Part shown: positions 861 to 64,000 of the stretch, piece by piece | Numbering within the stretch: position 1 is the first letter of the stretch | Layout: each line of letters opens with the position of its first letter | Assembly (NCBI GenBank): GCA_024281375.1 | Contig: JAJSAD010000003.1 | Coordinates: forward strand, 5,514 to 69,513 | Reading direction: 5' to 3' | Source: Alphaproteobacteria bacterium | Lineage (GTDB): Bacteria; Pseudomonadota; Alphaproteobacteria; Caedimonadales; UBA9215 | Length of the DNA stretch: 64,000 nt | The notes under the pieces: generated by a model | Databases searched by the model: none | Told to the model about the DNA's origin: nothing | What the model saw: only the letters and a program-made list of their open reading frames with translations | Program-made: the position numbers and the translations under genes

Positions 861-998
861 TTACCCTTTAAAAGTCTTCCAAAAATCTTTTAGTTTCTTA
901 GAAAATCCTTTTGATGTTGGGCTATTATCATGATCCTGAGCGATCTTATCAAATTCTTTTATAAGCTCTTTTTGTTTAGAGGTCAAATTCACAGGCGT
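861..998 (-). other. In-frame continuation of dnaJ after the TAA: conserved DnaJ C-terminal tail
   Basis: My translation of the reverse strand in the same frame gives 'TPVNLTSKQKELIKEFDKIAQDHDNSPTSKGFSKKLKDFWKTFKG*' (stop at 861-863). This matches the E. coli DnaJ tail pattern 'ETPVxLxxxQKxLLxEL'. Confidence 0.8.
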
Positions 999-2021
999 TT
1001 AAACATCCACCAAAATATAAAGATCACCCCGCCTTGATTGACGCATTATGGTCATGCCCTTATCTTTCAAGCGGAATTTCTTACCCGATTGAATCCCTTC
1101 AGGAATCTTAACCTTTGTTTTGCCCCCGTCAATTGTGGGGACTTCAACCTCACCTCCCAAAATAGCCGCACTCATGGGAACGGTTACTTGAAAGCTAAGA
1201 TGCTCACCCGCACGCTGAAAAAGCTTGTGAGGATTAACAGTCACAAAGACATAAAGATCACCCGCGGGAGCACCAAACAAACCGGCTTCTCCTTCTCCCG
1301 TCAACCGAATTCTTGTGCCATCTTCCACACCCGCAGGGACGCTCACCTTAAGCTTACGAGGCTTCATAACACGGCCTTGTCCATGACACGGCACACAAGG
1401 ATCTTTAATGATTTGACCCGTTGCCTGACAGGCAGAACAAGGTCGCTCCATAGTAAAAAAGCCTTGCTGAGTGCGTTGCACCCCAGCGCCGTGACATTGA
1501 GGACAAGTGGTTGATCCGGAGCCCTTTTTGGCCCCGCTTCCCCCACAGTCTTTACAAGAAACACTAGACCTCATGGAAACGGTTTTTTGAACGCCCGCAA
1601 AAGCCTCTTCTAAAGAAAGGTCCATATCATAACGCAGATCATTCCCTTTTTGGGCTCTAGATTTCGAGGAGGCTCGACCACCCCCCATAAAATCACCAAA
1701 CATTTCTTCAAAGATATCTCCAAATCCAGCTCCACCAGAAGCCCCAGCAGCGGCCTTGTGAAAACCAGCACCCGCACCGCCAAAACCACCAGCCCCCTCA
1801 AAAGCCCCATGTCCAAATTGGTCATAGGCTGCTTTTTTCTGAGGATCTTTTAGGGTTTCATAGGCTTCATTAAGTTCCTTGAATTTTTTTTCAGCCCCCT
1901 CATTTCCCGGATTTTGATCGGGATGATATTTCATAGCAAGCTTACGATAAGCCTTTTTCATCTCGGCGTCAGACGCGCCCTTTTGAAGGCCCAGAACCTC
2001 ATAATAATCACGTTTTGACAT
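999..2021 (-). CDS. dnaJ: Chaperone DnaJ, ended prematurely by an in-frame TAA
   Basis: J-domain 'DYYEVLGL...YHPDQN', a G/F-rich linker and four CxxCxG zinc-finger motifs. The ORF stops at TAA (999-1001) exactly where DnaJ proteins have Glu in '..V(E)TPVNL..'. Confidence 0.93.
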
Positions 2022-8764: not shown

Positions 8765-9352
8765 ATGTTTGATCTGTCAATACTTCAAGATGCCCTGGCT
8801 TTTTTAACGCAACAATCCCTAGGATTACAGTTGCTCTTTATCTTGCTGGCCTATGCCCTTGCCCCTGTTTGTGGGGTTCCCATCACCTTTATCACCTATG
8901 TCACGGCTTTTATATTTGGCTTGAAGGTGGGGGCTCCCCTTGCTTTTATAGGGTACTGCCTGAGTCTCACTCTCCTTTTTGAAGGGGCGGCTCTCTTTAA
9001 AAATAAAAGCCTTATCAAAATCCCGTTAAGCAAGCTGCAAAACCGTTTTCCTAAACTCTCCCAACGGCTCTCTTTTCCTCTGATTGTGGGGCTGGCTTCT
9101 ATTTTGCCATACCTTCCTCTTGTTGCACTTTTGGGTCTTACACAAGAAAAACGCTTCACAACTTACAGTGCCCTTCTTTTGGGAAGTATGCCCGCTTTTA
9201 TCATTGCTCTGCAAGCCGGTGCCCTTGGTAATGGCCTTGTTATGGGCATGAGCCAAAATCGCCTCATTTTTTCCTTTATAACTTTAGGCCTAGCCCTTAT
9301 GCTTCACTTGTGGATCTTTAAAAAAGCAAAGAAAAATATCAAAAAAACATGA
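8765..9352 (+). CDS. Polytopic membrane protein, possibly TVP38/TMEM64 (DedA-superfamily)-like
   Basis: 195 aa with five to six hydrophobic segments. Its stop overlaps the start of the next gene (ATGA). Family assignment is only by general resemblance. Confidence 0.6.
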   Translation: MFDLSILQDALAFLTQQSLGLQLLFILLAYALAPVCGVPITFITYVTAFIFGLKVGAPLAFIGYCLSLTLLFEGAALFKNKSLIKIPLSKLQNRFPKLSQRLSFPLIVGLASILPYLPLVALLGLTQEKRFTTYSALLLGSMPAFIIALQAGALGNGLVMGMSQNRLIFSFITLGLALMLHLWIFKKAKKNIKKT

Positions 9353-10095
9353 CGCCTTATCTTTATTTTATCCTTCCCGTTTATAATGAATCCAAAAGCA
9401 TTTATGACTTGCTAGAGGAAATCAACACCCTTGCTAATGAGTCTCCCTCTATTATTAAGGCTTTTCCCATCAATGATGCCAGTCAAGATGACAGCGCCTC
9501 TTGGATTGGGCGTGCTCAACAAGAATTCAAAAACATCAAAATAGAAACCTTGACTCACGAAACAAATCAAGGTCTCCAGGGAGCTTTAAACACAGGACTT
9601 TCCCATATAGCTCCCCTTATTAAGGATGAGGATTATGTGGTGACAATGGACGGGGATAATACGCATCCGCCTTATCTCACCAAAACTATGATCCAAAAAC
9701 ACAAAGAAGGCGCCGACCTTGTCTTGTCTTCCCGCTATCTTGAGCAATCCGTTGTAACGGGTGTGTCTTTTTTTAGATTGTTTTTAAGTTTTGGAGCTCG
9801 GATTTTGTATCAACTTTTCTGGCGCTTTAAAGGGGTTAAAGACTACACCTGTTTATTTCGCTCCCACAAAGGGAGCCTTTTAAAGGCCTTTTTCAAAGCT
9901 CAGGAAATGCCCTATCTCACCCAACAGGGCTTTGCGTGTACAACGGAATTCTTAGCAAAATTGATGATCCACAAACCCATTACTGTTGAAGTGCCTCTTA
10001 TCTTGAATTACGGTAAAAAAGTGGGGGTTTCTAATGTGCGTATCTTTCAAACAATTTTGACATCTCTTAAAATTATGTTGAGAAAAATTTCATGA
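9349..10095 (+). CDS. Family-2 glycosyltransferase, polyprenol-phosphate sugar synthase-like (Dpm1/ArnC/GtrB type)
   Basis: 'ILPVYNES', 'NDASQDDS' and 'MDGDNTHPP' match the GT2 DxD / D-G-D-x-x-H pattern of this subgroup. Confidence 0.8.
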   Translation: MTPYLYFILPVYNESKSIYDLLEEINTLANESPSIIKAFPINDASQDDSASWIGRAQQEFKNIKIETLTHETNQGLQGALNTGLSHIAPLIKDEDYVVTMDGDNTHPPYLTKTMIQKHKEGADLVLSSRYLEQSVVTGVSFFRLFLSFGARILYQLFWRFKGVKDYTCLFRSHKGSLLKAFFKAQEMPYLTQQGFACTTEFLAKLMIHKPITVEVPLILNYGKKVGVSNVRIFQTILTSLKIMLRKIS

Positions 10096-11209
10096 AAATT
10101 ATGACTATTTTTGGGACAAGACCCGAAGCTATTAAAGTTGCGCCTTTGATCAAAGCTTTTGAAGAAGAGCCAACTATCGATCACCTTACCTGTGTTACGG
10201 CACAACATCGGGATATGCTGGATCAAGTCCTTGAAACCTTTGATATTGTGCCGGACTATGATCTTGATCTCATGAAAGAAAATCAAGACTTAGCGTCTCT
10301 TTCCGCTCAAATCTTAACAAAAATCACAGCTATCTTAAAAGAAACACAGCCAGATTTTATCCTCGTACAAGGAGACACAACAACGGTTCTGATGGCGGCG
10401 CTTGCTGCTTTTTATCAACGGATAAAAGTAGCCCACCTTGAAGCAGGCCTTCGCACAAACGATATTCTTTCCCCTTGGCCCGAAGAAGCCAATAGGCGTC
10501 TTGTTTCGACAATAACCCATGTGCATTTTGCCCCAACGCTTTATGCAAAGGAAAAACTTTGGCGGAAAATATTAACTCTCAGCGTATTCTTGTGACAGGC
10601 AATAGTGTCATTGATGCCCTTTTCAAGGCTCGTGATAAAATTGCCTCATCACCAGAAACAGTAGAACATTTTCATAAAACTTATCCCTTCTTAGAAAATA
10701 CTTCTCAAAAACTTTTGGTAACTCTTCATCGTCGGGAAAGCCATGGTGAAAAAATCTCCGGCATTTGTGAGGCTCTTAAAGAGCTTTCCCAAGAAAAAAC
10801 TAACCTTGATATTATTTTTTCCGTCCACCCCAACCCGAATGTCAAAAAAGTTGTGAAAACTATTTTAGGGGGGATTTCCAATGTACATCTTATTGCGCCA
10901 CCCCCCTATCTTGATTTTGTTCACCTCATGACTCAAGCGACTCTTATTTTAACGGATTCTGGCGGTATTCAAGAAGAAGCACCCAGTCTTAATATTCCCG
11001 TATTGGTTGCCCGTGACAAAACAGAACGCCCTGAAGGTATCCAAGCTGGTAGCAGTATTTTGGTGGGGCGGGATGGACAGGATATTAAAAAAACAATTCT
11101 CGCTTTTTTAGAGAATAAATCCTTATATAATAAGCACGCCAATATCCCTAATCCTTTTGGAGACGGCACAACAGCACAGCGCGTTCTCGACTATTTTAAG
11201 AAGGTTTAA
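10092..11209 (+). pseudogene. wecB: UDP-N-acetylglucosamine 2-epimerase, split by a 1-nt deletion near 10558-10560
   Basis: ORF 10092..10595 carries 'IFGTRPEAIKVAPL', 'QHRDMLDQV' and 'HLEAGLRT'. ORF 10559..11209 continues with 'RILVTGNSVIDAL...TDSGGIQEEAPSL'. Joining needs one extra T in 'aaactttggcg' to read 'AKEKLLAENINSQRILVTGN'. Confidence 0.88.
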
Positions 11210-13236: not shown

Positions 13237-14730
13237 TTATTTCAGCTTAGCTTTTAATATCTCGTTAATGGCTTTGGGGTTGCCTTTGCCTTGCATGGCT
13301 TTCATGACTTGGCCCACAAAGAACCCAAAGAGCTTGTCTTTACCAGACTTATATTCGGCAACTTTATCAGTATTGTTTGCGATGATTTCATCAACAATAG
13401 CTTCAATAGCCCCATCATCACTTACCTGTTCAAGGCCATTGCTAGCCACAATATCCTCAGGACTTTCAGCAGTCTCCCACATAACGGGGAAAATTTTCTT
13501 GGCGATCTTTCCCGAAATCGTGTCGGCTACAATGAGGTCAACCATCTCGGCTAAATGAATTGCTGAAATCTTAGAGTCTTTTAAGGCAACACCTTCTTTA
13601 TTCAAAAGGCCAAACAAGTCCACTACAAGCCAATTCACGAGAACCTTAACGGTTTTTTGGTCTTTATTTTTCAGAGCATTCAAAGCCTCTTCAAAGAACG
13701 CAGACGTGTTCATATCGGCTGTCAAAACAGCCGCATCATAGCTGTTCAACTCATAATTAGCCATAAAGCGTTTTTTCTTATCATCGGGCAATTCAGGCAT
13801 GGCGTCACGAATCTGATCGACCAGTTCTTGGGGAATGACTAAGGGTGGTAAATCAGGGTCAGGAAAGTAGCGATAATCATGGGCATCTTCCTTAGAGCGC
13901 ATGGAACGTGTCACCCCTTTAACAGGATCAAACAAGCGTGTTTCTTGGGCAACACTCCCGCCATTTTCTAGAATGTCCATTTGACGGGAAATTTCATAAG
14001 CAATGGCCTGTCCCATAAAACGAATAGAGTTTACATTCTTAATTTCAGCACGGGTGCCAAGCTCGGCACCGGGGCGACGCAAGGAAATATTCACATCCGC
14101 CCGCATGCTGCCTTGCTCCATATTCCCATCGCACGTCCCAAGGCACCGCAACAAAGCCCGCAGTTTCTTCACATAAGCTTGGGCTTCTTCGATGCTTCGC
14201 ATATCAGGCTTAGAAACAATCTCCATCAAGGCCACACCAGAGCGGTTTAGATCAATATATGTCTTGCTGGGATGTTGATCGTGAATACTCTTGCCCGCAT
14301 CTTGTTCTAAATGAAGGCGCTCAATACCAATGCGGCGCTCAATGCCGCCGTCGAGTTCAATATCCAAATGACCTTCTCCCACAATAGGGAGTTCAAACTG
14401 TGAAATCTGGTAGCCTTGGGGGAGGTCAGCGTAAAAATAATTCTTACGGTCAAACAAAGATTTCAAGTTAATCTTCGCATCTAGGCCCAGACCTGTTTTA
14501 ATGGCTTGTTCTACACAAACTTTATTAATAACTGGCAACATACCTGGAAAACCCGCATCCACAAAAGAAACTTGCGCATTAGGGTCCGCCCCAAAATCCG
14601 TTGAGGCTCCTGAAAAGAGCTTGGCCTTTGAAACCACTTGTGCATGAACTTCAAGGCCAATGACAAGTTCCCAGGGACCCGTGTCGCTCTCAATCCAACG
14701 AGGGTCTTTTTCCATTACAACGTTATTCAT
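13237..14730 (-). CDS. gatB: Asp/Glu-tRNA amidotransferase subunit B
   Basis: '[13 protein letters not shown]' and 'YFPDPDLPP'. Its start overlaps the gatA stop (ATGA). Confidence 0.96.
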
Positions 14731-16211
14731 GAGGCACTCCGAATTTCTTGTGTTTTTGTAGCAAAACCAGCGGCTGTTTCAAGGAACAATCCTGCATCCA
14801 ACATCTGTGTTTCCTGAAAAGCAGGGGCCGTTAATTGCATCCCTAGGGGGAGACCTTTGCTTGAAGAACCGGCGGGTATAGACATGCTGGGTAAGCCTGC
14901 AATGTTGGCTGTGACCGTTAGAATATCATTCATGTACATGGCAATGGGGTCTTTGGGTTCTTCCCCAATGGCAAAAGCGGCGGTGGGTGTTGTGGGCGTT
15001 AAAATTAAATCCACTTTCTTATAAGCCTCGGCAAAATCATTGCAAATGAGCCGGCGAACCTTAAGGGCTTTTACGAAATACGCATCATAATATCCCGCAG
15101 AAAGCACGTAAGTCCCTGTCATAATACGACGTTTTACTTCTTCTCCAAAGCCTTCGCCACGGGTTTTTTCATAGAGCTCGGTCAAATCTTTCGGATCATC
15201 AGCGCGGTGTCCATAACGCACCCCATCATAGCGCGCTAGGTTTGAAGAGGCTTCAGCAGGGGCTAAGATATAATAAGTCGGCAACGCATATTTCGAATGA
15301 GGTAAGGAGATATCAATAATCTCTGCCCCATTTTCCTTGAACCACGTGATGGTCTCTTGCCATAAAGCCTCGATTTCAGCATCAAGTCCTCCCACTTGAT
15401 ATTCCTTGGGAATGCCAATTTTAAGACCTTTAACATCACCTTTTAAAAGGTCCTTGTAAGACGGGATCTCAACGGTTGCAGAGGTCGCATCTTTGGGATC
15501 ATGACCCGCCATAGCTTCCAGCATAATGGCAGAATCACGCACCGTCTTTGTCATAGGGCCTGCTTGATCAAGGGAGGAGGCGAAGGCCATAATGCCCCAC
15601 CTGGAACACAAACCATAAGTTGGCTTCACCCCCACAAGACCACAGAAGGCAGCCGGTTGACGAATAGAACCCCCGGTATCGGTACCCGTTGCCGCCATCA
15701 CAGATCCAGCTGCAACGGCCGCCGCAGACCCACCGGAAGAGCCCCCAGGAACATAGTCTTTGTCCTCGCCTCTCACATGCCAAGGATTCTTAACAGGTCC
15801 GTAAGCACTATTGAGGTTTGCCGATCCCATGGCAAATTCATCCATGTTCATTTTGCCCAGCATCACAGCACCCCTATTCCATAAATTTTGGGTCACCGTG
15901 GATTCATAGGGAGGTTTGAAATCGTCTAAAATTTTAGAGGCTGCCGTTGTTTTAACACCCCTTGTGCAAAATAAATCTTTAATACCAATGGGAATACCTT
16001 CCATAATGCCTGCATTCCCTGCTGCAAGGCGGGCATCGGCATTTTCTGCACCTGACAAAGCAAGATCAGGAGTCTCCGTAATAAAAGCATTCAAGTCACG
16101 GGTTTCATCCAGACGCTTAAGATGCGCTTTGGTTAACTCAACGGCTGAAAACTCTTTTTGATCAAGGCCAGCTCTCGCTTCCGTGATGGTTAATGATGTT
16201 AAATCAGTCAT
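14727..16211 (-). CDS. gatA: Glu-tRNA amidotransferase subunit A
   Basis: Amidase signature '[14 protein letters not shown]'. The ATG at 16211 sits just downstream of the gatC stop. The gene ends in TGA. Confidence 0.96.
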
Positions 16212-16215
16212 TTTT

Positions 16216-16503
16216 TTACTCCACAACCTTTGGGACGGCAAACATATTTAAATCTTTTTCAGGGGCATTTGTTAAAACACAATTGGCCTGGTCGCCCTCA
16301 TTAATGATATCGTCCCGCTCTGGCATTTGTTTGATATGAATGCTGGTTAAAGGTTCTATACCATTGGTATTCACCTCAGAAAGTTGCTCGACCCAAGACA
16401 AAATCGTCGTCAACCCGTCTTGGTATTTTGCAATTTCATCATCCTTAATTTCAATGCGCGATAGGGTGCCGATTTTACGGACCGTTTTTTCATCAATGTG
16501 CAT
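16216..16503 (-). CDS. gatC: Glu-tRNA amidotransferase subunit C
   Basis: 95 aa with '[23 protein letters not shown]'. It sits upstream of gatA and gatB. Confidence 0.92.
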
Positions 16504-18199: not shown

Positions 18200-18231
18200 A
18201 TTTTTAACGTTCCTGTTTATTAGAGTCGTTC

Positions 18232-28959: not shown

Positions 28960-30524
28960 ATGAGCAACAATATACCAATCCTTGATATGAACGAGAGCTT
29001 TAAAAAAGCCTTGCGCTTGATGGATGGCTCGTCCAAGAATCTCTTTATTACGGGTAAGGCGGGGACGGGGAAATCAACACTCCTGCAATACTTCAGAGAT
29101 CACACTCAAAAACAAATAGCTATCCTAGCCCCAACGGGGGTTGCGGCGGTAAATGTGAAGGGCCAAACCATTCACTCCTTTTTTAAATTTAAGCCCGATG
29201 TCACCTTGGAGGGCATCAAGAAAAAGCGCGCCTCTAAAAGCGGTAAGAAGAATATTTATCAACGTCTTGATGCTATCATTATTGATGAAATTTCTATGGT
29301 AAGAGCCGATCTTATGGATTGTATGGACCGCTTTTTACGCTTAAATGGCCGAGAGGGCACAAAACCCTTTGGCGGGGTGCAGGTTATTTTCTTTGGCGAT
29401 CTTTATCAGTTAGCCCCGGTGATTTCACGCCAAGAGCGTGAGATTTTTGAAACCCATTACGAAAGCCCTTATTTTTTTAGCGCCAATGTCATTGATTAAA
29501 TTGATCTTGAAATCCTTGAACTAGAGCAAATCTATCGTCAAAAAGACAAAGCCTTTATTGAAATTCTCAATGCCATTCGTAATAACACCATTACGCCAGA
29601 TCAATTAACCCTGTTGAATACGCGTCATACCCCCGATATTAAACCCACAAAAGAGGCTTTATCTGTTTTTTAACCCCGACCAATAGAGCTGCCAACGTTA
29701 TTAATGAGGAGCAGTTAGAGTGTCTCGAGGGAAAATATCACTTTTTTGAAGGAAGGACCTCGGGCAGTTTTGGCAAAGGTCATTTACCAGCTCCTGAAGA
29801 TCTTCAAATTAAAATCGGTGCCCAGGTTATGATGTTGAATAATGACCCCAAACAGCGTTGGATTAATGGGACCATGGCACGGGTGTTGCGTATTTTCCAA
29901 GATGATGAGGATTATGAAACCATCATTAGCGTCGAACTTGAAGATGGCAAGAAGGCTAATGTCGCGCCCCATACCTGGGAGCTTTATAAGTACAAGCTCG
30001 ACAGCGATAAAATTGTTTCTGAAATCGCGGGAAGTTTTACGCAATATCCTTTAAACCTCGCTTGGGGCATTACCATTCACAAAAGCCAAGGCAAAACCTT
30101 TGATCAAGCTATTATCGATCTTGGCAGTAATGTGTTTTCTTCGGGTCAAACCTATGTGGCTTTGAGTCGTTGCACAACCCTTGAAGGTCTCAGTTTGCGC
30201 AAAAAAATTCTTTCTAAACATATCTGGACTGATCAGAGGGTTGTGGACTTTCTCACCACCCATCAGTATAAATTGGCTGATAAATTGATGAGTGTGAACG
30301 ATAAACTTTATGTATTAGGGCAAGCCATGGAAGACGAGCGTCCCCTTAAAATCACGTATCTCAGGGCAAATGGCACAAAAAGTGAGCGTATTATCGAACC
30401 CCTTGAGGTGGGAGAAATGACCTATCAAGACACACCTTTTCAAGGAGTCAAAGCCTATTGTCAATTGGCTGAGAAAAACATGACCTTTCAAGTTCGTCAA
30501 ATCCTAGAGATTCAGGGGGCTTGA
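28960..30524 (+). pseudogene. PIF1/RecD-like helicase with a C-terminal WYL-like domain, disrupted by an in-frame TAA and a -1 frameshift
   Basis: Walker A 'GKAGTGKST', 'IIIDEISMV', 'GDLYQLAPV', 'QIYRQKD', 'GAQVMMLNND', 'ITIHKSQGKTF' and 'YVALSRC'. Lesions are TAA at 29497-29499 and a T6 run at 29666-29671 that needs one more T to read 'VFLTPTNRAANVIN'. The tail 'ITYLRANGTKSERIIEPLEV...VKAYCQLAEKNMTFQVRQILEI' resembles a WYL domain. Confidence 0.85.
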
Positions 30525-36215: not shown

Positions 36216-36521
36216 ATGATTATATTAAACAAGATACTTATTGTATTATTTTTTTCTATCAGTTTAGCAAAAACATCTCTTGTGAATGAAGGGGAAACCT
36301 ACGAAATTAGAGATGCTTTCGTTATGAATTATATGTGTTACATTCAAGTTCAGAGAAAAAATCTTCAAGAGAAAGGTCTTTTACTAAGAGTGCCTTGCAA
36401 AACATATCTAAAAAGATATTTTTCTAAGTCTCTGCGACAGCAAGCTTTATGCAATTCTCTTTATAGTGCTTTGCTTAAACGCACCATCCTTAGGTTGCTG
36501 GGCAATAGACAAGAAGATTAA
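36216..36521 (+). CDS. Possible small secreted protein (weak call)
   Basis: An ORF with signal-like 'MIILNKILIVLFFSISLAKT'. It is AT-rich, has no homology I recognise, and is convergent with tadC. Confidence 0.3.
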   Translation: MIILNKILIVLFFSISLAKTSLVNEGETYEIRDAFVMNYMCYIQVQRKNLQEKGLLLRVPCKTYLKRYFSKSLRQQALCNSLYSALLKRTILRLLGNRQED

Positions 36522-37453: not shown

Positions 37454-37462
37454 ATATACCTC

Positions 37463-38446: not shown

Positions 38447-38449
38447 CTC

Positions 38450-39862
38450 TTAAGAAGACCTCAATGATTTCATAAGGTCGTCCTCAAACTTAAAGGTCCT
38501 GGCAATTTCTACAAAGGAATCAGGCTTGTTCAGATTTTTAAATTCTCCTTGAATAATGCCCTCTTCGTCATCATGAGTATAGTGGAAACGGAAGATATCT
38601 TGGTGTTGAATCACACCTTTTTTCACACCGTTGATTTCCGTTATTTGTGTCAGGCGACGACGACCATCTCGCATACGATCCACATGGACAATTAAGTTAA
38701 TAGAATCTCCAATATAACTTTTTAAAACTTGAGAAGGAAAGTCATGCCCTGTCATAAGTAACATATTTTCAAGGCGTGAGAGGGCCTCAACAGAACTGTT
38801 AGCATGAACCGTTGACATAGAACCATCGTGCCCCGTGTTCATGGCTTGAAGCATATCAAAAGCCTCAGCCCCCCGGCACTCTCCAACGATGATACGGTCA
38901 GGGCGCATCCGTAAAGCATTTTTTAAAAGGTCGGCAATTTTGATGGTTCCTTCTCCCTCAACATTGGGGGGCCTTGATTCCAAACGCACCACATGGGGCT
39001 GGGCCAGTTGAAGTTCTGCAGAATCTTCAAGGGTAACAATGCGTTCATTGGGACTAATTAATTGAGACAGAGCATTTAAAAGGGTTGTTTTACCAGCACC
39101 TGTTCCCCCTGAAACAATAATATTCAAACGACATTGTGCGGCAACCTTTAAAAAATCAGCCATATGTTGCGAGAGACTGCCTGTTTTGACCATTTGATCG
39201 AGTGTAATTGTTTTATTAGAAAATTTACGAATAGAGATAGAAATGCCATCGAGGGCAACGGGTGGAATAATAATATTCACTCGGCTTCCATCTGCTAAAC
39301 GTGCGTCAACCATTGGACTAGATTCATCAATACGTCGACCAATCATGTTGGCAATGCGTTGGGAAATTTGCATAACATGACGAGGACTTCGAAACACGAC
39401 ATCCGTTAAATAGAGTTTGCCTTGGCGTTCGACAAAAATCGTATTGTAGGCATTAACCATAATATCATTGATTAAAGGGTCAGCTAGTAAAATCTCAAGG
39501 GGGCCTAACCCGATCATGTCATTAATAATATCTTCAGCGATTTGTTGCTGTTCGTGATAGGTGATTCGCGCTTGATTCTCTTCAGTATACTCAGTGATAA
39601 AGCGCTCAATTTCTTGATGGAGCTCATCTTTTTTCATCTTCGAAACTGTTGCTAAATCAATTTCATTGATTAATCGATCAAAAATTTGGTTTCGAAAGGA
39701 AGAAACAGCCTCAGAGAAATGAACGCTTTTTGTTTCAAGTTTTGCAAGGTCAAAGGGATTCAAATCCGTTGAATTTTTTTCAACGATCCTAACATCTTCA
39801 CTATCTTTTTCTTGAAAAGAATCCCCGGGGGGGGCAGAAGGTTTTTGACCAAAAGGAGGCAT
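38450..39862 (-). CDS. cpaF: Tad pilus secretion ATPase CpaF/TadA
   Basis: Walker A 'SGGTGAGKTTLLNAL', 'IVTLEDSAEL' and 'RPDRIIVGECRGAEAFDMLQAMNTGHDGS'. Confidence 0.95.
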   Translation of the reverse strand: MPPFGQKPSAPPGDSFQEKDSEDVRIVEKNSTDLNPFDLAKLETKSVHFSEAVSSFRNQIFDRLINEIDLATVSKMKKDELHQEIERFITEYTEENQARITYHEQQQIAEDIINDMIGLGPLEILLADPLINDIMVNAYNTIFVERQGKLYLTDVVFRSPRHVMQISQRIANMIGRRIDESSPMVDARLADGSRVNIIIPPVALDGISISIRKFSNKTITLDQMVKTGSLSQHMADFLKVAAQCRLNIIVSGGTGAGKTTLLNALSQLISPNERIVTLEDSAELQLAQPHVVRLESRPPNVEGEGTIKIADLLKNALRMRPDRIIVGECRGAEAFDMLQAMNTGHDGSMSTVHANSSVEALSRLENMLLMTGHDFPSQVLKSYIGDSINLIVHVDRMRDGRRRLTQITEINGVKKGVIQHQDIFRFHYTHDDEEGIIQGEFKNLNKPDSFVEIARTFKFEDDLMKSLRSS

Positions 39863-39886
39863 TTTTCTTTTTTTCTCCCTAACTAT

Positions 39887-41095
39887 TTAGGCTGTAAATA
39901 GGTTTTTTAAAAATGATTTTTCTTTATGTTCTAAGGGTTTTCCAACAAGGTGAGCGGCAAATTCTTTTATTTCAAGAGAGAGCTGACTACTTTCCTTTAT
40001 AAGAGGTGAGGCATTATTTAAACATTCAAGGGGTATTTTTCTATCAAAGCGGGTCATGAAAGTAATAGGATGGTCAATGGCCACCTCAAAATCACTCTGA
40101 GAAATTTCACCTTCATTATACAAACCGACTTTGTTTGCAAGAATAAGTATATTTTGTTCAATACTGGCTCTTTCTTGAAAATAACGAATAAGCCTCGATG
40201 TTTCCCGAACAGATGAAAATGTTAAATCACATACCAAAACGATGGTATCAGAGAATTTAAACACAAGTTCTTTAAAGGAAACAGGTGCGCCATGGGAACA
40301 ATCCACAAGAGTGTAATTATAATTCTGTGCCAAAAGACTTAATATAATTTTCATACCAGCAGCACATTGATTATAAGGTGTTAAAAGTTCTGTTTCGGAA
40401 CTGAGAATATCCAAACGATTTCCGTAGGGCACAATCATCTTATCAAGAAGAGTTTGGTCAATCTGATTGGATCGTTTCAATAAATCGATCAGCCCGGCAT
40501 TAATGGGGATATCTAAAGCGTGGGCAAGGGGGGCCGATGTCAAATTAAAATCCACAAGACTCATATGCTTATTATGATCTTCTGCCATAGAAATAGCACA
40601 ATTGGCTGTCAGCATTGATGTACCAACACCTCCACAGACCCCTAAAAACGAAATAATATGACCGCTATAAGAAAAGCCAGAGGTCTCAGAAACATCCGTG
40701 CCTTTTTTCAAAACATCCTTTAAGCGATTCAAGACTAAACTGGTATTAAGGGGCTTTACAAGATAATCACTAACCCCCAAAGCCAATAATTGCCTAAAAA
40801 TACTGACATCATTATCCTTGCCAAGGGCAATGACGTGAATGCTCGGTTCACATACACCTGATATTTTTTCCATTTCTGTAATGGGGAGAGCCGCTTCTGA
40901 GAGGTCAACAATGAGAAGGCTCGGCGAATCATTTTTTTTTAAATAATTAAAGGCAAATTTTGAATTTCCCCGTAAAATTTTTGCCGCAATACCAAGTTCC
41001 TTGAAAGGAATTTCTTTTAGAACGGCTTCAGTCTCACTATCTGTCACAAGAGCAAGCAATGTCATTTCAGAAGTATAAGATGTTTTCTTTTCCAT
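39887..41095 (-). CDS. cpaE: CpaE/TadZ: receiver-like N-domain plus atypical ParA/MinD ATPase
   Basis: The N-terminal receiver-like fold is followed by 'ISFLGVCGGVGTSMLTAN', a deviant Walker A. Its position is between cpaD and cpaF. Confidence 0.85.
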   Translation of the reverse strand: MEKKTSYTSEMTLLALVTDSETEAVLKEIPFKELGIAAKILRGNSKFAFNYLKKNDSPSLLIVDLSEAALPITEMEKISGVCEPSIHVIALGKDNDVSIFRQLLALGVSDYLVKPLNTSLVLNRLKDVLKKGTDVSETSGFSYSGHIISFLGVCGGVGTSMLTANCAISMAEDHNKHMSLVDFNLTSAPLAHALDIPINAGLIDLLKRSNQIDQTLLDKMIVPYGNRLDILSSETELLTPYNQCAAGMKIILSLLAQNYNYTLVDCSHGAPVSFKELVFKFSDTIVLVCDLTFSSVRETSRLIRYFQERASIEQNILILANKVGLYNEGEISQSDFEVAIDHPITFMTRFDRKIPLECLNNASPLIKESSQLSLEIKEFAAHLVGKPLEHKEKSFLKNLFTA

Positions 41096-41110
41096 ATTTA
41101 CCCAATATTC

Positions 41111-41821
41111 TTATTCGGATGAAGCACCAAGGTTCGCAAGATCTTGGATGCTCCCCGCATCAAAGCCTGACTCTGATTCATTGTCTGTTGTGGCACGAGC
41201 ACGATATTTTTCAATCACAGCCGCATTGTAAGGACCGTCAGGGTTTGCAAGGGGTTGGGCTTCATAAAGGTCCCGTGGCTCTGCCAGCATTTGTGCAAAA
41301 TTTCGTTCTGTCACACAACCAAATTGAGATTCTCCCTGCGGCAAGGTCTTCTCTCCCATGATATCCCATCCCGGACACTGTGGCAAACTCACCTCATATT
41401 GATCAATAACAACAGTGATCATGTTTTTATTTTTCCGTGATATTGTGGCTACCTTGTGAGGCGCTAAATAGGTTACCCTCACACGATGGGGCTCAATGCC
41501 ATAAAGCCTAAAATGTCTCGAACAGTGACGAATTCGTTCCGTTTGTAAAGAGTCATGGGCCCGCGTTTTGGGTACATTCATCAGCAAACGAGCATAAACA
41601 GGTGTGTCTATGGTTGCCCTTGATATTAAGTTTCGAAGAACTTTATGTTGTGCTGAATTCATATGGGTTTGAGACGATGTGAAGTAGAAATTTTCAAAAT
41701 GAGAGTAGCGCTCGACCTTTGTTTCCCAAGGCTTTCTTTCAAGTTCTTTTCCATCATGCTGACAGGCAGAGACAAATAAGAACGATAAAACACAAAGAGC
41801 AATTCTTTTAAAGGTATCCAT
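41111..41821 (-). CDS. cpaD: Pilus assembly lipoprotein CpaD
   Basis: Lipobox 'FVSAC' and the CpaD pattern 'CPGWD....FGCVTERNFAQMLAEPRDL...YR'. Confidence 0.8.
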   Translation of the reverse strand: MDTFKRIALCVLSFLFVSACQHDGKELERKPWETKVERYSHFENFYFTSSQTHMNSAQHKVLRNLISRATIDTPVYARLLMNVPKTRAHDSLQTERIRHCSRHFRLYGIEPHRVRVTYLAPHKVATISRKNKNMITVVIDQYEVSLPQCPGWDIMGEKTLPQGESQFGCVTERNFAQMLAEPRDLYEAQPLANPDGPYNAAVIEKYRARATTDNESESGFDAGSIQDLANLGASSE

Positions 41822-46269: not shown

Positions 46270-46998
46270 TTATAAAAGATGTTTAAATTTTTTTGCAGGA
46301 ATTTCTTCAGCCTCAGCAATGTCAAGGTTGCCTAATTCAAAGGGACCGTAGGAAACCCTAACCAAGCGATTAACACGCGCGCCAAGGTGATCCACGATTT
46401 TGCGAATTTCACGATTTTTACCCTCATGGAGTGTCATTTCAATCCATTGGTTGAGGCCTTTTTTTGGGCCAAATTTCCATTGAATAGGGCCGTAATCTAC
46501 GCCGTTAACAGAGATACCCATTGCCAATTTTTTGAGTTCTTTTGAGTCCATTTCTCCATAAACGCGTACGTGATAGGTGCGGGGGATATGACTGCTGGGG
46601 TGCTCGAGCTTCCGAGCGAGCTCTCCATTATTGGTTAACAGGATTAAGCCCTCACTCATCAAATCCAAGCGACCTACGGAAATAATATGCTTGGGTAAAC
46701 CCCGGGGAAGAATGTCAAAGAGGGTCTCTCGACCTTCCGGATCATCGTGGGTCGTGACAATGCCCCGGGGTTTATGAAAGGCCCAAAGCCGTGTTGGCTC
46801 TTGTTGCGGCAGAGTTTTGCCATCAATGTCGATTTTATCCGTGGGGAGAACGGTAGTAGCAGGGGTCTCTAGAACCGTCCCATTTAAAGAAACACGTCCC
46901 TCCTGAATCCAGCGTTCTGCTTCTCGCCTCGAACACACGCCTGCGCGAGCAATGATTTTTGCAATACGTTCTGGTTTTGGGACGTGTTGATTTACCAT
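46270..46998 (-). CDS. rRNA pseudouridine synthase, RsuA/RluB family
   Basis: S4 domain 'RIAKIIARAGVCSRREAERWIQEGRVSLNG' and catalytic 'GRLDLMSEGLILLTN'. Confidence 0.88.
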   Translation of the reverse strand: MVNQHVPKPERIAKIIARAGVCSRREAERWIQEGRVSLNGTVLETPATTVLPTDKIDIDGKTLPQQEPTRLWAFHKPRGIVTTHDDPEGRETLFDILPRGLPKHIISVGRLDLMSEGLILLTNNGELARKLEHPSSHIPRTYHVRVYGEMDSKELKKLAMGISVNGVDYGPIQWKFGPKKGLNQWIEMTLHEGKNREIRKIVDHLGARVNRLVRVSYGPFELGNLDIAEAEEIPAKKFKHLL

Positions 46999-47880
46999 TT
47001 ATGAATGAATAATCGCTTTTGGTTCTGGAGATATCTCTCCTGTAGAAAACTCTTTCATTTCCCCAGCAATATCTAAAATAAGACCACCGTCCTTATTAAT
47101 GGATCTAAAAAGCCCTTCTGTTCTTTTCTCTCCATCATAAATTTCCACCTCTTCCTCTAAATAAAGTAATTTGTTTTTATAGGGAATCCATGGATCATAA
47201 GAACCATTCATAAACTCCCTCAACTTTGGTACTAGATTTTGAGTTAAAATATCTAGGACCGCATCTCTTTCTGGTGTTTCCCCTAATAAATGACGAAGGG
47301 ATGTTGCCGCTTGATCTATACCATTCACAACATCATCAGATAAATCCACATTAATACCAATACCGATTTTCATAATGTTTCCCTTAATGTCAACAATGCT
47401 CCCAGCTATTTTTTGTCCTTCAACCAGCACATTATTAATCCAACGAAGGCCTATCTGTTTCTTATCAACACCAAGGGCCTCTAGAGTATCACAAATAGAA
47501 AGACCAACCACAGCAGGTAAAAGAGAAATGCGTGGCATGATTTTCGGATCAAAAGGCACACAAAATGTTGCAAACAGGTTGCCCTCAGGAGACACCCATT
47601 CTCGTCCCCAATACCCACGCCCTTTTCTTTGAGAGTCTGAGGTAACAACAATCCATTTTGTTTTTGAAACTTCTGATAAGTGATCGTTAGCAGTCGTTTG
47701 GGTAGATTCTATATCTCCATAATGAGAACGTGTCACAGAAATAAGTCTGACTCTTTGAGTGCTTAAGAGCTCAAGTTCCTCATGTTCTATGGGCAGCCCT
47801 GCCCCTGAACCCCATGCAAAAGAGGGATACCAACATAAAAGTAAAGCCCCTAAAATAAAATTTTTCATCATCATAATCAC
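46999..47880 (-). CDS. Biotin-protein-ligase (BirA-like, no HTH) with a signal-peptide-like N-terminus
   Basis: BPL motif 'QRKGRGYWGREWVSPEGNLFATF' and 'KWINNVLVEGQKIAGSIV'. N-terminus 'MKNFILGALLLCWYPSFAWG'. Confidence 0.72.
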   Translation of the reverse strand: MIMMMKNFILGALLLCWYPSFAWGSGAGLPIEHEELELLSTQRVRLISVTRSHYGDIESTQTTANDHLSEVSKTKWIVVTSDSQRKGRGYWGREWVSPEGNLFATFCVPFDPKIMPRISLLPAVVGLSICDTLEALGVDKKQIGLRWINNVLVEGQKIAGSIVDIKGNIMKIGIGINVDLSDDVVNGIDQAATSLRHLLGETPERDAVLDILTQNLVPKLREFMNGSYDPWIPYKNKLLYLEEEVEIYDGEKRTEGLFRSINKDGGLILDIAGEMKEFSTGEISPEPKAIIHS

Positions 47881-47889
47881 ATTCCTTTT

Positions 47890-48768
47890 TTATAAATTTT
47901 TTAAGTCCAAAGCCCGCTGATTAAGCTGTTTTTTAGGCAAGCCCGTTAGGGTCACAACATCTTGCACAGCACTTTTAACACCTTGAGTTTTAAGGGCTCT
48001 TACCAGATGAGCATCGATCTCTTCTAGTGTCAATGTTCTCTCTTTTGTACGGATAATGAGGACCATTTCGCCTTTGAGAGGAAAGGTTCCTAGGTTTTTT
48101 ATTATCTCTTGTGGGGTTCCTCGAATCACTTGTTCAAAATTTTTGGTGAGTTCCCTTGCGATAGATAGGGTGTCAATGATTGGTGCTTCTTTTAGATAAT
48201 AGAGTGTTTTTTTAAGACGTTTTGGAGACTCATAAAAGATAAAGGTTTGATTGTCTGAAAGCCCCTCTATCATTTTCAAAGCTTCTTTTTCCTTTCGAGG
48301 GAAAAAGCCTTTAAATTCAAAAGAATCACTGGGAATACCCGATAAGAGGAGGGCCGATAAACCAGCGGAGGCGCCGGGAATACACGTCAGGTAAATATCT
48401 TGGGCAATGACTTGTTGCACTAATTTATAACCCGGATCAGAAATAAGGGGCATCCCCGCATCACTGACCAAAACCACGCGTCTTCTGTCTTTAAGGTGAG
48501 CCATAATTTGTCCGCCCCTTTGGTCTCCTTTAGCATCATTATAAATCAACAAGGGTTTATGAATGCCATAATGGGACAAGAGTTTTTTGGTCACACGTGT
48601 GTCTTCACAGGCAATAAAATCAGCTTTTTCTAATGTTGCAAGGGCTCGTAATGTGATATCTTCTAGATTACCAATGGGCGTCGCCACAAGGTAAAGCCCT
48701 GGGGGATATTTACATTTGGACCCACCCGCGATAAAATTCTCAATAGACACTTTATTAAAGGATGACAT
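47890..48768 (-). CDS. rsmI: 16S rRNA (cytidine1402-2'-O)-methyltransferase
   Basis: 'LYLVATPIGNLEDITLRAL' and 'IACEDTRVTKKLL'. I chose the ATG at 48768 because the 48798 start would overlap the divergent neighbour. The start is uncertain. Confidence 0.9.
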   Translation of the reverse strand: MSSFNKVSIENFIAGGSKCKYPPGLYLVATPIGNLEDITLRALATLEKADFIACEDTRVTKKLLSHYGIHKPLLIYNDAKGDQRGGQIMAHLKDRRRVVLVSDAGMPLISDPGYKLVQQVIAQDIYLTCIPGASAGLSALLLSGIPSDSFEFKGFFPRKEKEALKMIEGLSDNQTFIFYESPKRLKKTLYYLKEAPIIDTLSIARELTKNFEQVIRGTPQEIIKNLGTFPLKGEMVLIIRTKERTLTLEEIDAHLVRALKTQGVKSAVQDVVTLTGLPKKQLNQRALDLKNL

Positions 48769-48774
48769 ACAATA

Positions 48775-49965
48775 ATGACTCACTCTTTTTCTTTTCAAAA
48801 ATACGCAAGAGAAGCCCTTTTGGCAAGTTCTCTTAAAATAGTCCTTGTCAGTGCCTTGGTGGGTCTTCTCTTTTTAAGTGCCTGTTCTCAGAAACAACCA
48901 ACCTCCTTTGTGCCCATTGTTGATGAGCCATTGCCTTCAAAAGTCCAAGAAGAAGTTAAAAAATCCGACAAAGTTGCTTTGCTTTTACCGCTTTCTGGAC
49001 AACATAGTGACCTTGGGCAATCTCTGCAAAAAGCAGCGGAAATGAGCTTGTTTGATCATGGCGGAGATAAATTAAACGTTGCTATGTACGATACAAAAAG
49101 CTCTGCTTCTGGGGCGATGAGTGCAGCTCAACAAGCCGTTCAAGAAGGATCAGGACTTATCCTGGGGCCGATTTTTTCAAACCATGTCCAATCTGTAGCC
49201 CAAGTTGCACGGCGCGCTGGTATTAATGTTATTTCCTTTTCTAATAATAAAAATATCGCCAGCAGTGGTGTCTTTGCCCTTGGGTTTTCTCCCGAAGAAC
49301 AAGTGCGTCAGATCATCGCTTATGCTTCAAGCCATGGAAAGCAATCTTTTGGTGTCTTGGTTCCACGTAATGCTTATGGTTCTTTGGTGGAAAACGAGAT
49401 CCAACACCTTCGTCAACAGTACAATTTTGATGTGGAATTTATTCCCTATGACGTGAATTCCAAAAATTTATCCCATGATCTTAACCCTCTGAAGACCCTT
49501 AAGATTGATGCTCTCTTTATCCCAGAGGGGGGGCGTTCTCTCTCCCGTCTTATCTCTGCTATTTTGTATCAAGAAATTTCCTTAGAAGACATTCAACTTT
49601 TGGGAACAGGTCAATGGGATGACTCGAAAACCTTTGAAAATCATACGTTGCTCGGTGCCTGGATTGCCGCGCCCAACCCCCAAGAACGCCTCTCCTTTAA
49701 CGGAAAATATCAACAAGCTTATGGAGAAAGCCCTAACCGCCTGGCAACTTTAGCTTATGATGCTATTTCCATGCTCGCTGTTCTTCGTCGTCACCCAGGA
49801 GAACAAGCGTTTGGTTTTGCCGCTTTGACGCAAAGCCGTGGATTTGATGGTGTCGATGGTGTTTTTCGTCTCCAACAAAATGGTATAACAGACCGGAAAC
49901 TTTCTATTTTGATAGTGACTCAACAAGGGCTACAACCCCTCCAAATGGCAAGCTCCTCTTTTTAA
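48775..49965 (+). CDS. LpoA/LppC-like periplasmic-binding-fold lipoprotein (penicillin-binding protein activator-like)
   Basis: Lipobox 'LFLSAC' and a type-1 PBP fold pattern. It is divergent from rsmI, as yraL-yraM (rsmI-lpoA) are in E. coli. Confidence 0.6.
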   Translation: MTHSFSFQKYAREALLASSLKIVLVSALVGLLFLSACSQKQPTSFVPIVDEPLPSKVQEEVKKSDKVALLLPLSGQHSDLGQSLQKAAEMSLFDHGGDKLNVAMYDTKSSASGAMSAAQQAVQEGSGLILGPIFSNHVQSVAQVARRAGINVISFSNNKNIASSGVFALGFSPEEQVRQIIAYASSHGKQSFGVLVPRNAYGSLVENEIQHLRQQYNFDVEFIPYDVNSKNLSHDLNPLKTLKIDALFIPEGGRSLSRLISAILYQEISLEDIQLLGTGQWDDSKTFENHTLLGAWIAAPNPQERLSFNGKYQQAYGESPNRLATLAYDAISMLAVLRRHPGEQAFGFAALTQSRGFDGVDGVFRLQQNGITDRKLSILIVTQQGLQPLQMASSSF

Positions 49966-59587: not shown

Positions 59588-61399
59588 TTAATCATCGCCT
59601 GTCTTAAGGGCGGCAAGGAACGCGCTTTGAGGAATCTCGACGTTCCCAAACTGACGCATTCTCTTTTTACCCTTCTTTTGCTTTTCTAAAAGCTTTTTCT
59701 TACGGCTAATGTCTCCTCCATAACATTTGGAGGTCACGTCTTTTCGCATGGCAGAAATGGTCTCACGGGCAATGAATTTACCGCCGATGGCTGCTTGAAT
59801 GGGAATTTTAAACAACTGTCTTGGGATAAGACCCTTTAACCGTGCACACATTTGGCGTCCTCTGGCTTCCGATTGAGAGCGATGAGAAATATAAGACAAC
59901 GCATCAACGGGCTCGGAATTCACGAGGATAGAAACCCGCACTAAATCCCCTGGGCGATAATCGGTCACTTCATAATCAAAGCTCGCATAGCCTTTTGAGA
60001 TGGATTTTAAACGATCATAAAAATCAAAGACAATTTCGCTTAACGGAATATTATATACAACCATGGCCCGAGACCCAACATAGGTTAAATCTACTTGCTC
60101 CCCGCGGCGCTCTGTACACAATCCCAACACCCCCCCAAGGTAATCATCGGGGACCAAGATTGTTGCTTTAATCCAAGGCTCTTGGATTTCTTTGATCTTT
60201 ACGACATCGGGAAAATCTGCCGGATTATGCAGTTCGATCTCATCACCATTGGTGAGGTTGATCTTATAAATAACACTAGGCGCTGTTGTGATGAGATCAA
60301 GATTATATTCGCGTTCTAAGCGTTCTTGGATAATTTCAAGATGCAATAGCCCTAAGAATCCACATCGGAAACCAAGCCCAAGAGCTGCAGATGTTTCCGC
60401 TTCAAAAGAAAAACTCGCGTCGTTTAAACGCAGCTTAGCCAAGCTATCACGCAAGTCATCAAAATCAGCAGCATCCGTTGGAAAAAGGCCACAAAACACA
60501 ACAGGAATGCTGGGCTTAAATCCGTCAAGAGCTACGGCGGCTTTCCGTTTTTCTTCCGTAATGGTATCCCCCACATTACAGTCTGCAACATGTTTGATAC
60601 CCGCCGTGATAAAACCAACTTCACCGGGGCCAAGGGTCTCAACATTAACGCGCTCTGGCGTAAAATAGCCAACTTGCTCAATCTGGTACTTCGCTCCAGA
60701 AGCCATCATTTCAACTTGCTGACCTCTCTTTAAGTAACCATCAAAAACCCGCACGAGAATCATAACACCCAAATAAGGATCATACCAACTATCCACCAAC
60801 AAAGCCTTTAAAGGCGCATCGGGGTTCCCTTTAGGGGCTGGGAGATCGCTCACGATACGCTCTAGGATTTCTTCCACACCTACACCTGTCTTTGCAGAAG
60901 CGAGAACAGCTTCACTAGCATCAATACCAATCACGTCTTCAATTTGTGCTTTAATGCGTTCGGGCTCTGCGGCGGGCAAATCAATCTTATTGAGAACCGG
61001 AATAAGCTCGTGATTGTTTTCAATGGCTTTATAAACGTTCGCAAGGGTTTGAGCTTCAACCCCTTGGCTGGCATCCACCACCAACAATGATCCTTCACAA
61101 GCCGCTAGGGAGCGACTCACTTCATAAGCAAAGTCCACATGTCCCGGTGTATCCATGAGGTTAAGTTGATATTCCTCACCATTTTTGGCCTTATAGTTCA
61201 AGCGCACAGTCTGAGATTTAATGGTGATCCCCCGCTCGCGCTCGATATCCATAGAATCCAGCAATTGGTTTTTCATATCGCGCTCTTTCACAGCCCCGCA
61301 GTATTGAATGAGACGGTCAGCAAAGGTCGATTTACCGTGATCAATATGAGCCACAATAGAAAAATTATGGATATGGTCTAAAGATTTTGAGTCGCTCAT
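59588..61399 (-). CDS. lepA: Elongation factor 4
   Basis: '[16 protein letters not shown]'-type G1 motif ('[19 protein letters not shown]'), 'DTPGHVDF' and 'NKIDL'. Confidence 0.97.
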
Positions 61400-63810
61400 G
61401 TGCGCAACTCTCCACCCGCTTCACTGCCAACGGCAATGATAATTTTGTCCATCAGTTTATTAATCTCATCATCGGTTAAAGTATTTTCAAAGGGTTCGAA
61501 GGTAACCGTTAATGCTATAGATTTTTTTCCTTCCGGAATGCCCTTCCCGTCATAAATATCAAAAATATGAGCATCCGTAATCAACGCTTTATCCACCTTC
61601 ATGGCGGCTCGAATCATTTTATCCACTGGTGTTCCTTTTTCTAGAAGAAAGGCAAAATCCCGATGAATAGGCTGTAAAGATGATACTTTTAAAAGCTTTT
61701 TCTTGTTGGTCTTTTTTGTTTTCGGTAAACGATCCAAATACATCTCAAACCCAACAACGATGGCATCCACTTCAATGTCTTGTAAGATTTTAGGATGAAG
61801 TTCTCCAAAAACACCTAAGATATTTTTAGGACCCTGATAAATCGTGGCGGAACGACCCGGATGAAAAAACGACGGGGCTTTTGCTTTGATTTGAATAGTG
61901 TCCGTCTTCACACCGCAAGCTTCTAACGCAACGAGCAAGTCAGCTTTGACATCATACATATCTACAGGACGTTCTTTATTCAGCCAATGGCGCGGCGCAT
62001 GAGAATCACTGCGCACCCCTGCGATTCGCATTTCTTGGTTTTGGGGGAAGGTTGAATGATAGGCGGCTCCCACCTCAAATAAGGCACTATTCTCAAGGCC
62101 ACGATCTTTATTACGACCGGCCCCTGCTACAAGATTTGCCAATAAAGAAGGTCGCATCATCTCAAATTCTCGACTCAGGGGATTTGTGAGTGTCAAAGAT
62201 TTCTCCCCCCCGCCAAAGAGCGTCGCTCTCTTTTCATCCAAGAAAGACCACGTATTACATTCACACAGACCTCGCGAGGCAAGGGCTCGTCTGACAATAT
62301 GGCGACGGTCTTGATTTTGCAAAGAACCGGGAGTGCTTTCATAAAATTCATCCAGGGTGGGGTGGGGTAAACCTTCTTCTTCAATATGATCATACCCAAC
62401 CACACGACACACTTCCTCAACCAATGATTCAGGACAATCTATATCAAAACGCCACGGGGGCACTGAAACCATGAAACCAGCACTATCTTCATTCACGCCA
62501 AATCCAAGAGCCGTTAAAATGGCTTCTATCTTTCCACGAGACACCGTCATCCCCCCTCGGGTTTTGATCGTCTTTGGATCAAAATGAAGGCTCTGGGAAA
62601 AATCAGGAACATCACCCGCAACAACAGGTTCACTTGCGCTTCCCCCACAAAGGTCAAGGATCATTTGCGTCGCAATATCAAGACAGTCTTGAATGATTGT
62701 GGGGTCAACTCCTCGCTCGAAACGAAAACGAGAATCACTATGAATACCTAAACGACGGCCCGTTAGAGCTGTCACGATGGGATCAAAAAAAGCAGATTCC
62801 AAAAACACATCTGTTGTCTTTGCATCACAGCCGGTGGTCTCCCCCCCCATAATACCCGCCAGAGAAATAGGACCACTTTCATCGGCAATCACTGTCATTT
62901 GATCCGTCAAATTATATTCTTTTTCATCCAGGGCCAACATTTTTTCACCCAGTTTTGCTGAGCGTAAGGTCAGGGTCTCGCCAGACAATTTTGAAAGGTC
63001 AAAAACATGCATAGGGCGACAATGGGTAAAAGTCATGTAGTTCGTAATATCTACGAGAGCTGAGATCGGACGCACCCCAACGGCCAGTAATTTACGTTGC
63101 AACCACTCAGGACTGGGACCATTTTTAACACCGCTGATCACGCGTCCTGTAAATAACGGACAGGCGTGCTTTGTATCCTCAGTAAACTCTAAGTCGACTT
63201 TAACAGGGCACTGACCTGTTTGAATGAAATCAGAGGCATTAAAAGTCTTTAACTGACCAATACCCGTTGCCGCAAGATCTCTTGCAATCCCTCGAATGCC
63301 AAGGCAATCTCCTCGGTTTGGCGTAATTTCAAGGTCAAAAACCGGATCATTTAAACCAGCATAAAGGGCATAAGGCTCCCCGATAGGGGCCTCAGCATCC
63401 AAGTCCATAATCCCCTCAGACGTATCTTCCAAACTCAATTCTTGGGCTGAACACATCATGCCATTGCTTTCCACACCCCGAATTTTCGTGGGTTTCAGTT
63501 TCATCCCATTGCTTGGAATAGTCGTACCAGATTTCGCCAGCACCACCTTCATATCAGTCCTTGCATTAGAGGCCCCACAGACAATTTGCAAGGTCTCAGA
63601 CCCTGTTCACACCTGACACACTTTTAGCTTATCAGCATTAGGATGTTGTTCCGCACTAACCACATGGGCAATAACAAAGTCCTTAAGGTTTTCTGCAGGA
63701 TTCTCGACGGTATCCACTTCTAAGCCGAGGCTTGTGAGTTTTGTTGAAATTTCTTCAACGGAGGCTGTTGTCTCGAGGTGCTCTTTGAGCCAAGAAAAAG
63801 TAAATTTCAT
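61396..63810 (-). CDS. pheT: Phenylalanyl-tRNA synthetase beta subunit, interrupted by an in-frame TGA at 63607-63609
   Basis: ORF 63607..63810 '[12 protein letters not shown]...[12 protein letters not shown]' and ORF 61396..63591 '(L)[10 protein letters not shown]...' are in the same frame. My translation across the join is '[19 protein letters not shown]'. Confidence 0.93.
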
Positions 63811-64000
63811 TATTTTGCACCTCCCATTAAGGCTTCAAAGGCTGAAAAGCCATAATGGCGAAGCCAACGGTTATCCGTATCATAAAAAGATCGTAAATCT
63901 GGAATACCATATTTCAACATTGCCATACGCTCAATGCCAAGGCCAAAAGCAAATCCTTGATATTCACTGGAATCAATACCACAATTTTCCAAGACTTTCG
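63810..64000 (-). CDS. pheS: Phenylalanyl-tRNA synthetase alpha subunit, C-terminal part only (runs off the window)
   Basis: '[29 protein letters not shown]'. The stop overlaps the pheT ATG. Confidence 0.93.

Follow-up and report, generated by a model that had tools for sequence, protein, structure and literature searches.

How can the gene for an essential subunit of an aminoacyl-tRNA synthetase carry a stop codon inside its own reading frame? The question is raised by pheT, encoding the beta subunit of phenylalanine-tRNA ligase (PheRS), on the 64-kb stretch of DNA analysed here (the window). Three explanations put forward in an initial annotation of this DNA, namely sequencing error, readthrough and a second copy of the gene, remain the right ones to consider. 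Our analysis indicates that the stop is one of several lesions of evolutionary age zero and most likely an error of the consensus sequence; failing that, it would be a fresh nonsense mutation of the ordinary kind. It is not a signal for recoding.

An in-frame TGA splits pheT inside the B2 domain

The pheT gene occupies 61396..63810 on the minus strand. Translation from 63810 to 61396 gives one frame of 804 sense codons, codon 68 being bridged, with a single internal stop. This stop is a TGA at codon 68 (63607..63609, minus strand; TCA on the plus strand) and is followed by an A. The uninterrupted frame by which a bacterial PheT is recognised is thus broken in the window at this one codon. The initial annotation had placed the TGA at the same position, and translation across the junction reads exactly as given there. 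It had further described both flanks as conserved PheT sequence in the same frame. In agreement with this, the bridged protein matches the TIGR00472 profile (pheT_bact) from end to end (protein 1-803, profile 1-798 of 798) with 760 bits for a cut-off of 402.65, and its alignment with Escherichia coli PheT runs straight across the stop, opposite Asn68 of the E. coli protein. The stop lies within the PF01588-type tRNA-binding OB-fold (B2, approximately residues 39-128), confirming that it splits this domain. In the public record, pheT appears as two products of 67 and 718 amino acids. The first corresponds to an N-terminal ORF of 67 amino acids plus stop (63607..63810, minus strand), which covers B1 and reaches to the second strand of the B2 OB-fold; these 67 codons ahead of the stop show 94% identity to the nearest relative.

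The surroundings of the gene are those of an ancestral locus. The C-terminus of pheS is encoded at 63810..63992 and its TAA overlaps the pheT ATG by one base (TAATG), while the natural TGA of pheT (61398..61396, minus strand) overlaps the start codon of lepA as ATGA. The order pheS-pheT-lepA is common to the window and two relatives (L002 and L003), and the stop-start overlaps between the three genes are identical in relatives.

The stop is a private change of recent origin

A search of 5.8 billion proteins returned the 718-amino-acid product of the source itself (P0001, which starts at Met87) and otherwise uninterrupted PheT of ∼804 residues. The nearest relatives show 83%, 78% and 77% identity, and the nearest named ones include Holosporales metagenome-assembled genomes (MAGs). 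None is split: all PheT relatives found are uninterrupted and ∼804 amino acids long. Nor does the gene resemble a PheT that is naturally split or devoid of B2 as a trait of its lineage, for its B2 coding sequence is present in full, with conservation both before and after the stop. A literature search for natural pheT nonsense alleles gave nothing relevant.

The six closest relatives (73-83% identity, ∼804 amino acids) all carry Ser at residue 68. Ser was read in the five closest proteins and in a further metagenome contig, L027, and the next-closest proteins carry Phe, Tyr or Asp. Where the DNA was read, the Ser codons were TCC, TCC, TCT and TCT; TGA is one change away from another Ser codon, TCA. 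Over 119 homologues the column is variable (56 Asp, 23 Ser, 18 Asn and 10 Phe, plus others). The expectation of Asp, Asn or Arg in orthologues therefore needs amending: Asp and Asn are frequent in the wider set and Ser is the residue of the closest proteins. The TGA is a private change, absent from all relatives.

The rest of the gene bears no mark of decay. Over residues 1-85 we counted three changes specific to the window against three specific to the sister lineage (P0002), and no relaxed selection was detected upstream of the codons at which translation might restart. No excess of change was found at conserved PheT columns, with none at invariant columns and one conservative replacement, L246V, at the 97% level. 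Private substitutions in PheT are conservative and the same holds for LepA; radical private substitutions, a sign of random error, were absent from both proteins in what is a low-power test (∼3 expected). We conclude that the pheT lesion is either of approximately zero evolutionary age or located in a region that is still translated.

Four other lesions break genes of the window

At least five isolated lesions that break genes, the pheT stop among them, are present in the 64 kb and strike four of ∼62 genes: pheT, dnaJ, wecB and, twice, a gene for a PIF1-like helicase. In dnaJ (861-2021, minus strand), a TAA stands at codon 341 (999..1001) and is followed by 45 more DnaJ codons in frame up to the stop at 863..861. 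The bridged product matches NF008035 over positions 1-372 of 374, and its alignment with PDB 6jzb continues past the stop; in the public record the product is 340 amino acids long. The wecB gene (UDP-GlcNAc 2-epimerase; 10092-11209, plus strand) has lost one base in a short A or T run at 10552..10560 and is split into ORFs 10092..10595 and 10559..11209, which match positions 1-159 and 158-362 of the 366 of TIGR00236. The helicase gene (28960-30524, plus strand), whose product bears a C-terminal WYL domain, contains an in-frame TAA (29497..29499) and a one-base loss at 29666..29671, a T6 where T7 restores the frame (restored reading SVFLTPTNRAAN).

The remaining ∼57 genes appear whole by Pfam coverage. 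Of the four broken genes, pheT and dnaJ belong to the core housekeeping set; lesions apart, all four frames are clean and conserved. No old, eroded pseudogene showed up in the ORF lists and Pfam scans of the window, and the gaps between genes are short. The initial annotation had missed the four lesions outside pheT, and they change the weight of the pheT finding. Since at least four others accompany it, the pheT lesion speaks less for a peculiarity of pheT than for a feature of the sequence at large, be it error or a recent load of mutations. Should the lesion be an error, then, with roughly one gene-breaking defect per 13 kb, neither the apparent pseudogenes of this contig nor its 718-amino-acid 'PheT' call should be taken at face value.

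Several other features of the window were recorded. A 1.37-kb stretch between dnaK and a SPFH/Band-7 gene contains no clear gene and harbours purine/pyrimidine-rich tandem repeats at 4335-4396 and 4492-4575: a 9-12-nt unit, TTCTTCTCC, in ∼7 copies and an 18-nt unit, CAGGGAAAGAGAAGGAAA, in ∼4.7 copies. Five consecutive tad/cpa pilus genes (36518-41821, minus strand), encoding CpaD, an unassigned protein, a CpaF-like ATPase and two TadB/C-like proteins, share one reading frame with single TAA stops between them, and three more genes at 46270-48798 (minus strand) likewise share a frame; both runs probably reflect coincidence or tight packing. Finally, the window encodes a LicD-family protein (9-842, minus strand) and a choline/aminoglycoside-kinase-like protein (17087-18286, minus strand), which together give a hint of surface glycans decorated with phosphocholine and of life in association with a host.

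A consensus error is the most economical reading

We give about an even chance to the TGA being a sequencing or assembly error of the consensus, and we infer the same origin, rather than real mutation, for the other lesions. A sense codon, probably the Ser codon TCA, would have been turned into TGA in the record of an otherwise intact pheT under purifying selection. The deposited consensus would then be imperfect, retaining uncorrected errors in a metagenome-derived contig sampled once, and the organism would make a normal, full-length PheT with no special decoding. An imperfect consensus is the most economical reading of the data.

Several lines of evidence argue for it. The five lesions hit four of ∼62 genes while the others look whole, and housekeeping genes were not spared relative to accessory ones, the pattern expected of random errors. 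All lesions look fresh, next to short inter-gene gaps and no old pseudogenes, and pheT itself shows no relaxation, as judged from the balance of private changes over its first 85 residues. Both frameshifts are single-base homopolymer losses, a classic signature of error. The provenance of the contig is also suggestive. Both pheT products and nine of ten further window proteins are singletons at 90% identity among ∼15 billion proteins (the exception being the highly conserved SdhB), and these singletons occur on one NCBI contig only. The source genome is absent from a set of species-representative genomes scanned with the pattern GYDHIEEE, present in its pheT. Both facts fit a one-off assembly of marginal quality. 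Exact-protein look-ups for P0001, LepA and the 67-amino-acid peptide found no independent copy, and when metagenome contigs were scanned with a degenerate pattern, the only match was a more distant relative.

Other observations weigh against error. Stops are created by 3.8% of random substitutions in pheT. At ∼4%, the three nonsense lesions imply ∼60 substitution errors in 58 kb (∼1e-3), a rate implausibly high for a short-read consensus. A noisy long-read assembly, on the other hand, should have produced far more than two frameshifts, given the ∼75 homopolymers of at least 7 bases, and the run affected in wecB comprises just 4-6 bases. The lack of radical private substitutions in PheT and LepA also runs counter to random error, within the low power of that test. 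Finally, all four affected genes could tolerate their lesion, as selection acting on real mutations would leave them: the dnaJ stop affects the C-terminal tail, that of pheT comes early with restart codons just downstream, and wecB and the helicase gene are accessory. Should the TGA nonetheless be an error, the pheT lesion is a quality flag only.

A possible alternative: a real, recent nonsense allele

The main alternative, to which we attach a substantial but clearly smaller than even probability, is that the TGA is a real and recent nonsense mutation in a lineage that is accumulating inactivating mutations, possibly in the setting of a small effective population or a host-associated lifestyle. 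PheRS would be kept active by one of two routes. Restart of translation at TTG74 or ATG87 would give a beta subunit lacking B1 and some of B2, which the 67-amino-acid peptide might complement in trans. Alternatively, occasional readthrough of the UGA by tRNA-Trp may yield a full-length PheT with Trp68.

The spectrum of lesions is in favour of real mutation: with nonsense and frameshift lesions at 3:2, and frameshifts so rare in the presence of many homopolymers, it fits natural mutation better than long-read error, and every lesion sits at a tolerable site. Kinship with Holosporales MAGs and the pair formed by the LicD and choline-kinase-like proteins also hint at host association. Against this, a window with short spacers and no old pseudogenes is unlike a genome in decay, and a real allele is not supported by residues 1-85 either, where selection appears unrelaxed.

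The first route depends on the codons that follow the stop. The first possible in-frame restart is TTG at codon 74 (63589..63591, minus strand), five codons past the stop and the start of a 731-amino-acid ORF; SD-like pairing upstream of it is weak (-3.3 kcal/mol). The ATG at codon 87 (63550..63552, minus strand) lies 18 codons past the stop and is the start of P0001 on the public contig. Five nucleotides upstream of it stands a Shine-Dalgarno-like AAGGA (63558..63562, minus strand), whose pairing energy, -5.1 kcal/mol, is better than the -4.0 median of the real starts in this DNA. This motif is private to the lineage, relatives having CGT GCT, CGC TCT or CGA GAA. We considered whether it might be a compensatory Shine-Dalgarno and rejected the idea: although the exact 5-mer precedes only 1.1% of internal ATGs, 15% of them are matched with an equal or better pairing energy, and the motif was found post hoc. 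The site is therefore permissive and provides no evidence of adaptation.

We located these codons in the fold with the AlphaFold model of the 83%-identical relative, a protein of equal length and numbering (pLDDT ∼92 in this region). In the model, strand 63-68 ends with residue 68, beside the hairpin turn 69-72; the next strand, 73-78, starts at TTG74, and Met87 lies ahead of strand 88-93. The stop would thus adjoin a hairpin turn with a potential start at the opening of the next strand, a geometry which, as modelled, could make the lesion tolerable. On the other hand, a protein restarted at 74 or 87 would keep a broken OB-fold rather than undergo a clean domain deletion.

Published work on PheT bears on how well such a lesion could be tolerated. 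The B2 domain of E. coli PheRS is described as dispensable in the title of Roy & Ibba 2006 (Biochemistry 45:9156), as cited in PMC12494982, and B2 is missing from many PheT proteins of CPR bacteria (PMC5370408). In Mycoplasma pneumoniae, cells are viable with PheT made as two polypeptides split at the B1/B3 linker. Disruption was tolerated there only in this 34-bp linker, which follows B1-B2-B1; other pheT insertions, including inside B2, were not tolerated (PMC12494982). The codon-68 stop of the window falls in the most dispensable part of the gene. The initial annotation had considered two independently functional polypeptides unlikely on the ground that the stop splits the OB-fold. The split stands but the conclusion drawn from it is weaker than stated: the stop is at the edge of a hairpin turn, restart codons are near, B2 is reported to be dispensable and PheT can be split, if only at another site.

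Regarding the second route, Trp should be acceptable at residue 68, a highly variable column in which Phe and Tyr occur. However, the UGA-A context of the stop is not notably leaky, A being the commonest base after the ordinary TGA terminators of the window (five of 12).

We consider it unlikely, though worth stating, that the TGA is both real and fixed, so that this PheRS beta subunit is cut at a beta-hairpin turn of its OB-fold and exists either truncated (from TTG74 or ATG87) or as two reassembling polypeptides (1-67 plus 74/87-804). If true, the engineered split PheT would have an equivalent in nature. More generally, a real allele would mean that an essential aminoacyl-tRNA synthetase subunit tolerates a nonsense codon in a dispensable RNA-binding module. 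This would modestly extend the published deletion and split-protein experiments and would involve no new decoding mechanism.

Improbable readings: a second copy or recoding

The window gene could also be a dispensable pseudogene, the genome having an intact second pheT or a replacement PheRS elsewhere. We regard this as highly improbable. The window holds the ancestral locus, as judged from the pheS-pheT-lepA synteny and from stop and start codons that overlap as in relatives, and beyond a single lesion its pheT shows no decay and is normal in its pattern of substitution. Moreover, duplicate pheT genes are uncommon in bacteria.

Recoding of the TGA was suggested by the role of UGA as the codon of selenocysteine and of known reassignments, and by a small hairpin that begins one base past the stop (63589..63605, minus strand; 7 bp, 3-nt loop). 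Global reassignment is ruled out because TGA terminates many genes and Trp is always TGG. TGA terminates 12 of 59 curated genes, several of them in ATGA overlaps with the next gene and pheT itself included, as well as 8 of the 47 long open frames of the window. The two genes cited by the initial annotation as ending in TGA, gatA (14727..16241) and a GT2 gene (9349..10095), are among those confirmed. All 159 Trp codons in window genes are TGG, and the TGA at codon 68 is the sole in-frame TGA found in any conserved gene of the window. The rejection of code 4 (TGA as Trp) on these grounds was sound, and code 25 (Gly) fails too.

Local recoding fares no better. Neither Cys, Trp nor a stop is found at column 68 in ∼120 scored homologues or in L027, and the closest relatives have Ser TCY. 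Their uninterrupted frames and TCC or TCT codons rule out a conserved readthrough site, and selenocysteine insertion was rejected on the lack of Cys or stop in relatives and of any SECIS-like signal. No SECIS stem-loop was found downstream of the UGA, just the 7-bp triloop hairpin, which has no Rfam match. The fold of the 121-nt region containing this hairpin lacks significance (z = -1.15) and is for the most part a consequence of the coding sequence. An Rfam scan of the window identified two tRNAs (Glu and Gly) and no other family at the gathering threshold. The initial annotation had also proposed inspecting the sequence 3′ of the TGA for readthrough contexts; between the common UGA-A and the insignificant hairpin, none emerged. 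The variability of column 68, the lack of an Rfam signal and the insignificant hairpin make selenocysteine or programmed readthrough very unlikely. Moreover, both further in-frame stops of the window are TAA, and frameshifts occur as well, so that no single recoding rule covers all lesions. Programmed recoding, whether by selenocysteine, reassigned TGA or regulated readthrough, is thus close to refuted and the least probable of all readings.

Comparison with known systems

UGA is the leakiest stop codon, and the near-cognate tRNA-Trp causes leaky termination at it in bacteria. The pheT stop has in common with such cases that it is a UGA at a position which would tolerate Trp. It differs in having neither a specially leaky context nor a stimulatory structure, and background readthrough is expected to give a low yield for an essential synthetase.

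The engineered split PheT of M. pneumoniae (PMC12494982) offers another parallel. There too an essential PheRS beta subunit has a premature stop, and cells are viable with re-expression from an internal Met. However, that split is at about residue 207, leaves B1-B2-B1 intact and is served by an inserted promoter, whereas in the window the stop interrupts B2 itself, at residue 68, and a restart would be natural and is putative. The E. coli PheRS deleted for B2, as far as its cited title conveys, and the CPR PheT proteins (PMC12494982, PMC5370408) indicate that the domain struck by the stop is not strictly required. They represent a clean absence of the domain, in contrast to the full and conserved B2 coding sequence of the window, and truncation at 74 or 87 would leave half an OB-fold.

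A likeness also exists with the internal stops and frameshifts of draft or metagenome-assembled genomes, which annotation records as 'internal stop' or 'frameshifted' pseudogenes. The window shares with them isolated single-base lesions in conserved ORFs, several lesions per contig, single-base losses in homopolymers and the absence of all of these from relatives. It departs from them in one respect, a ratio of nonsense to frameshift lesions above that expected of indel-dominated long-read error.
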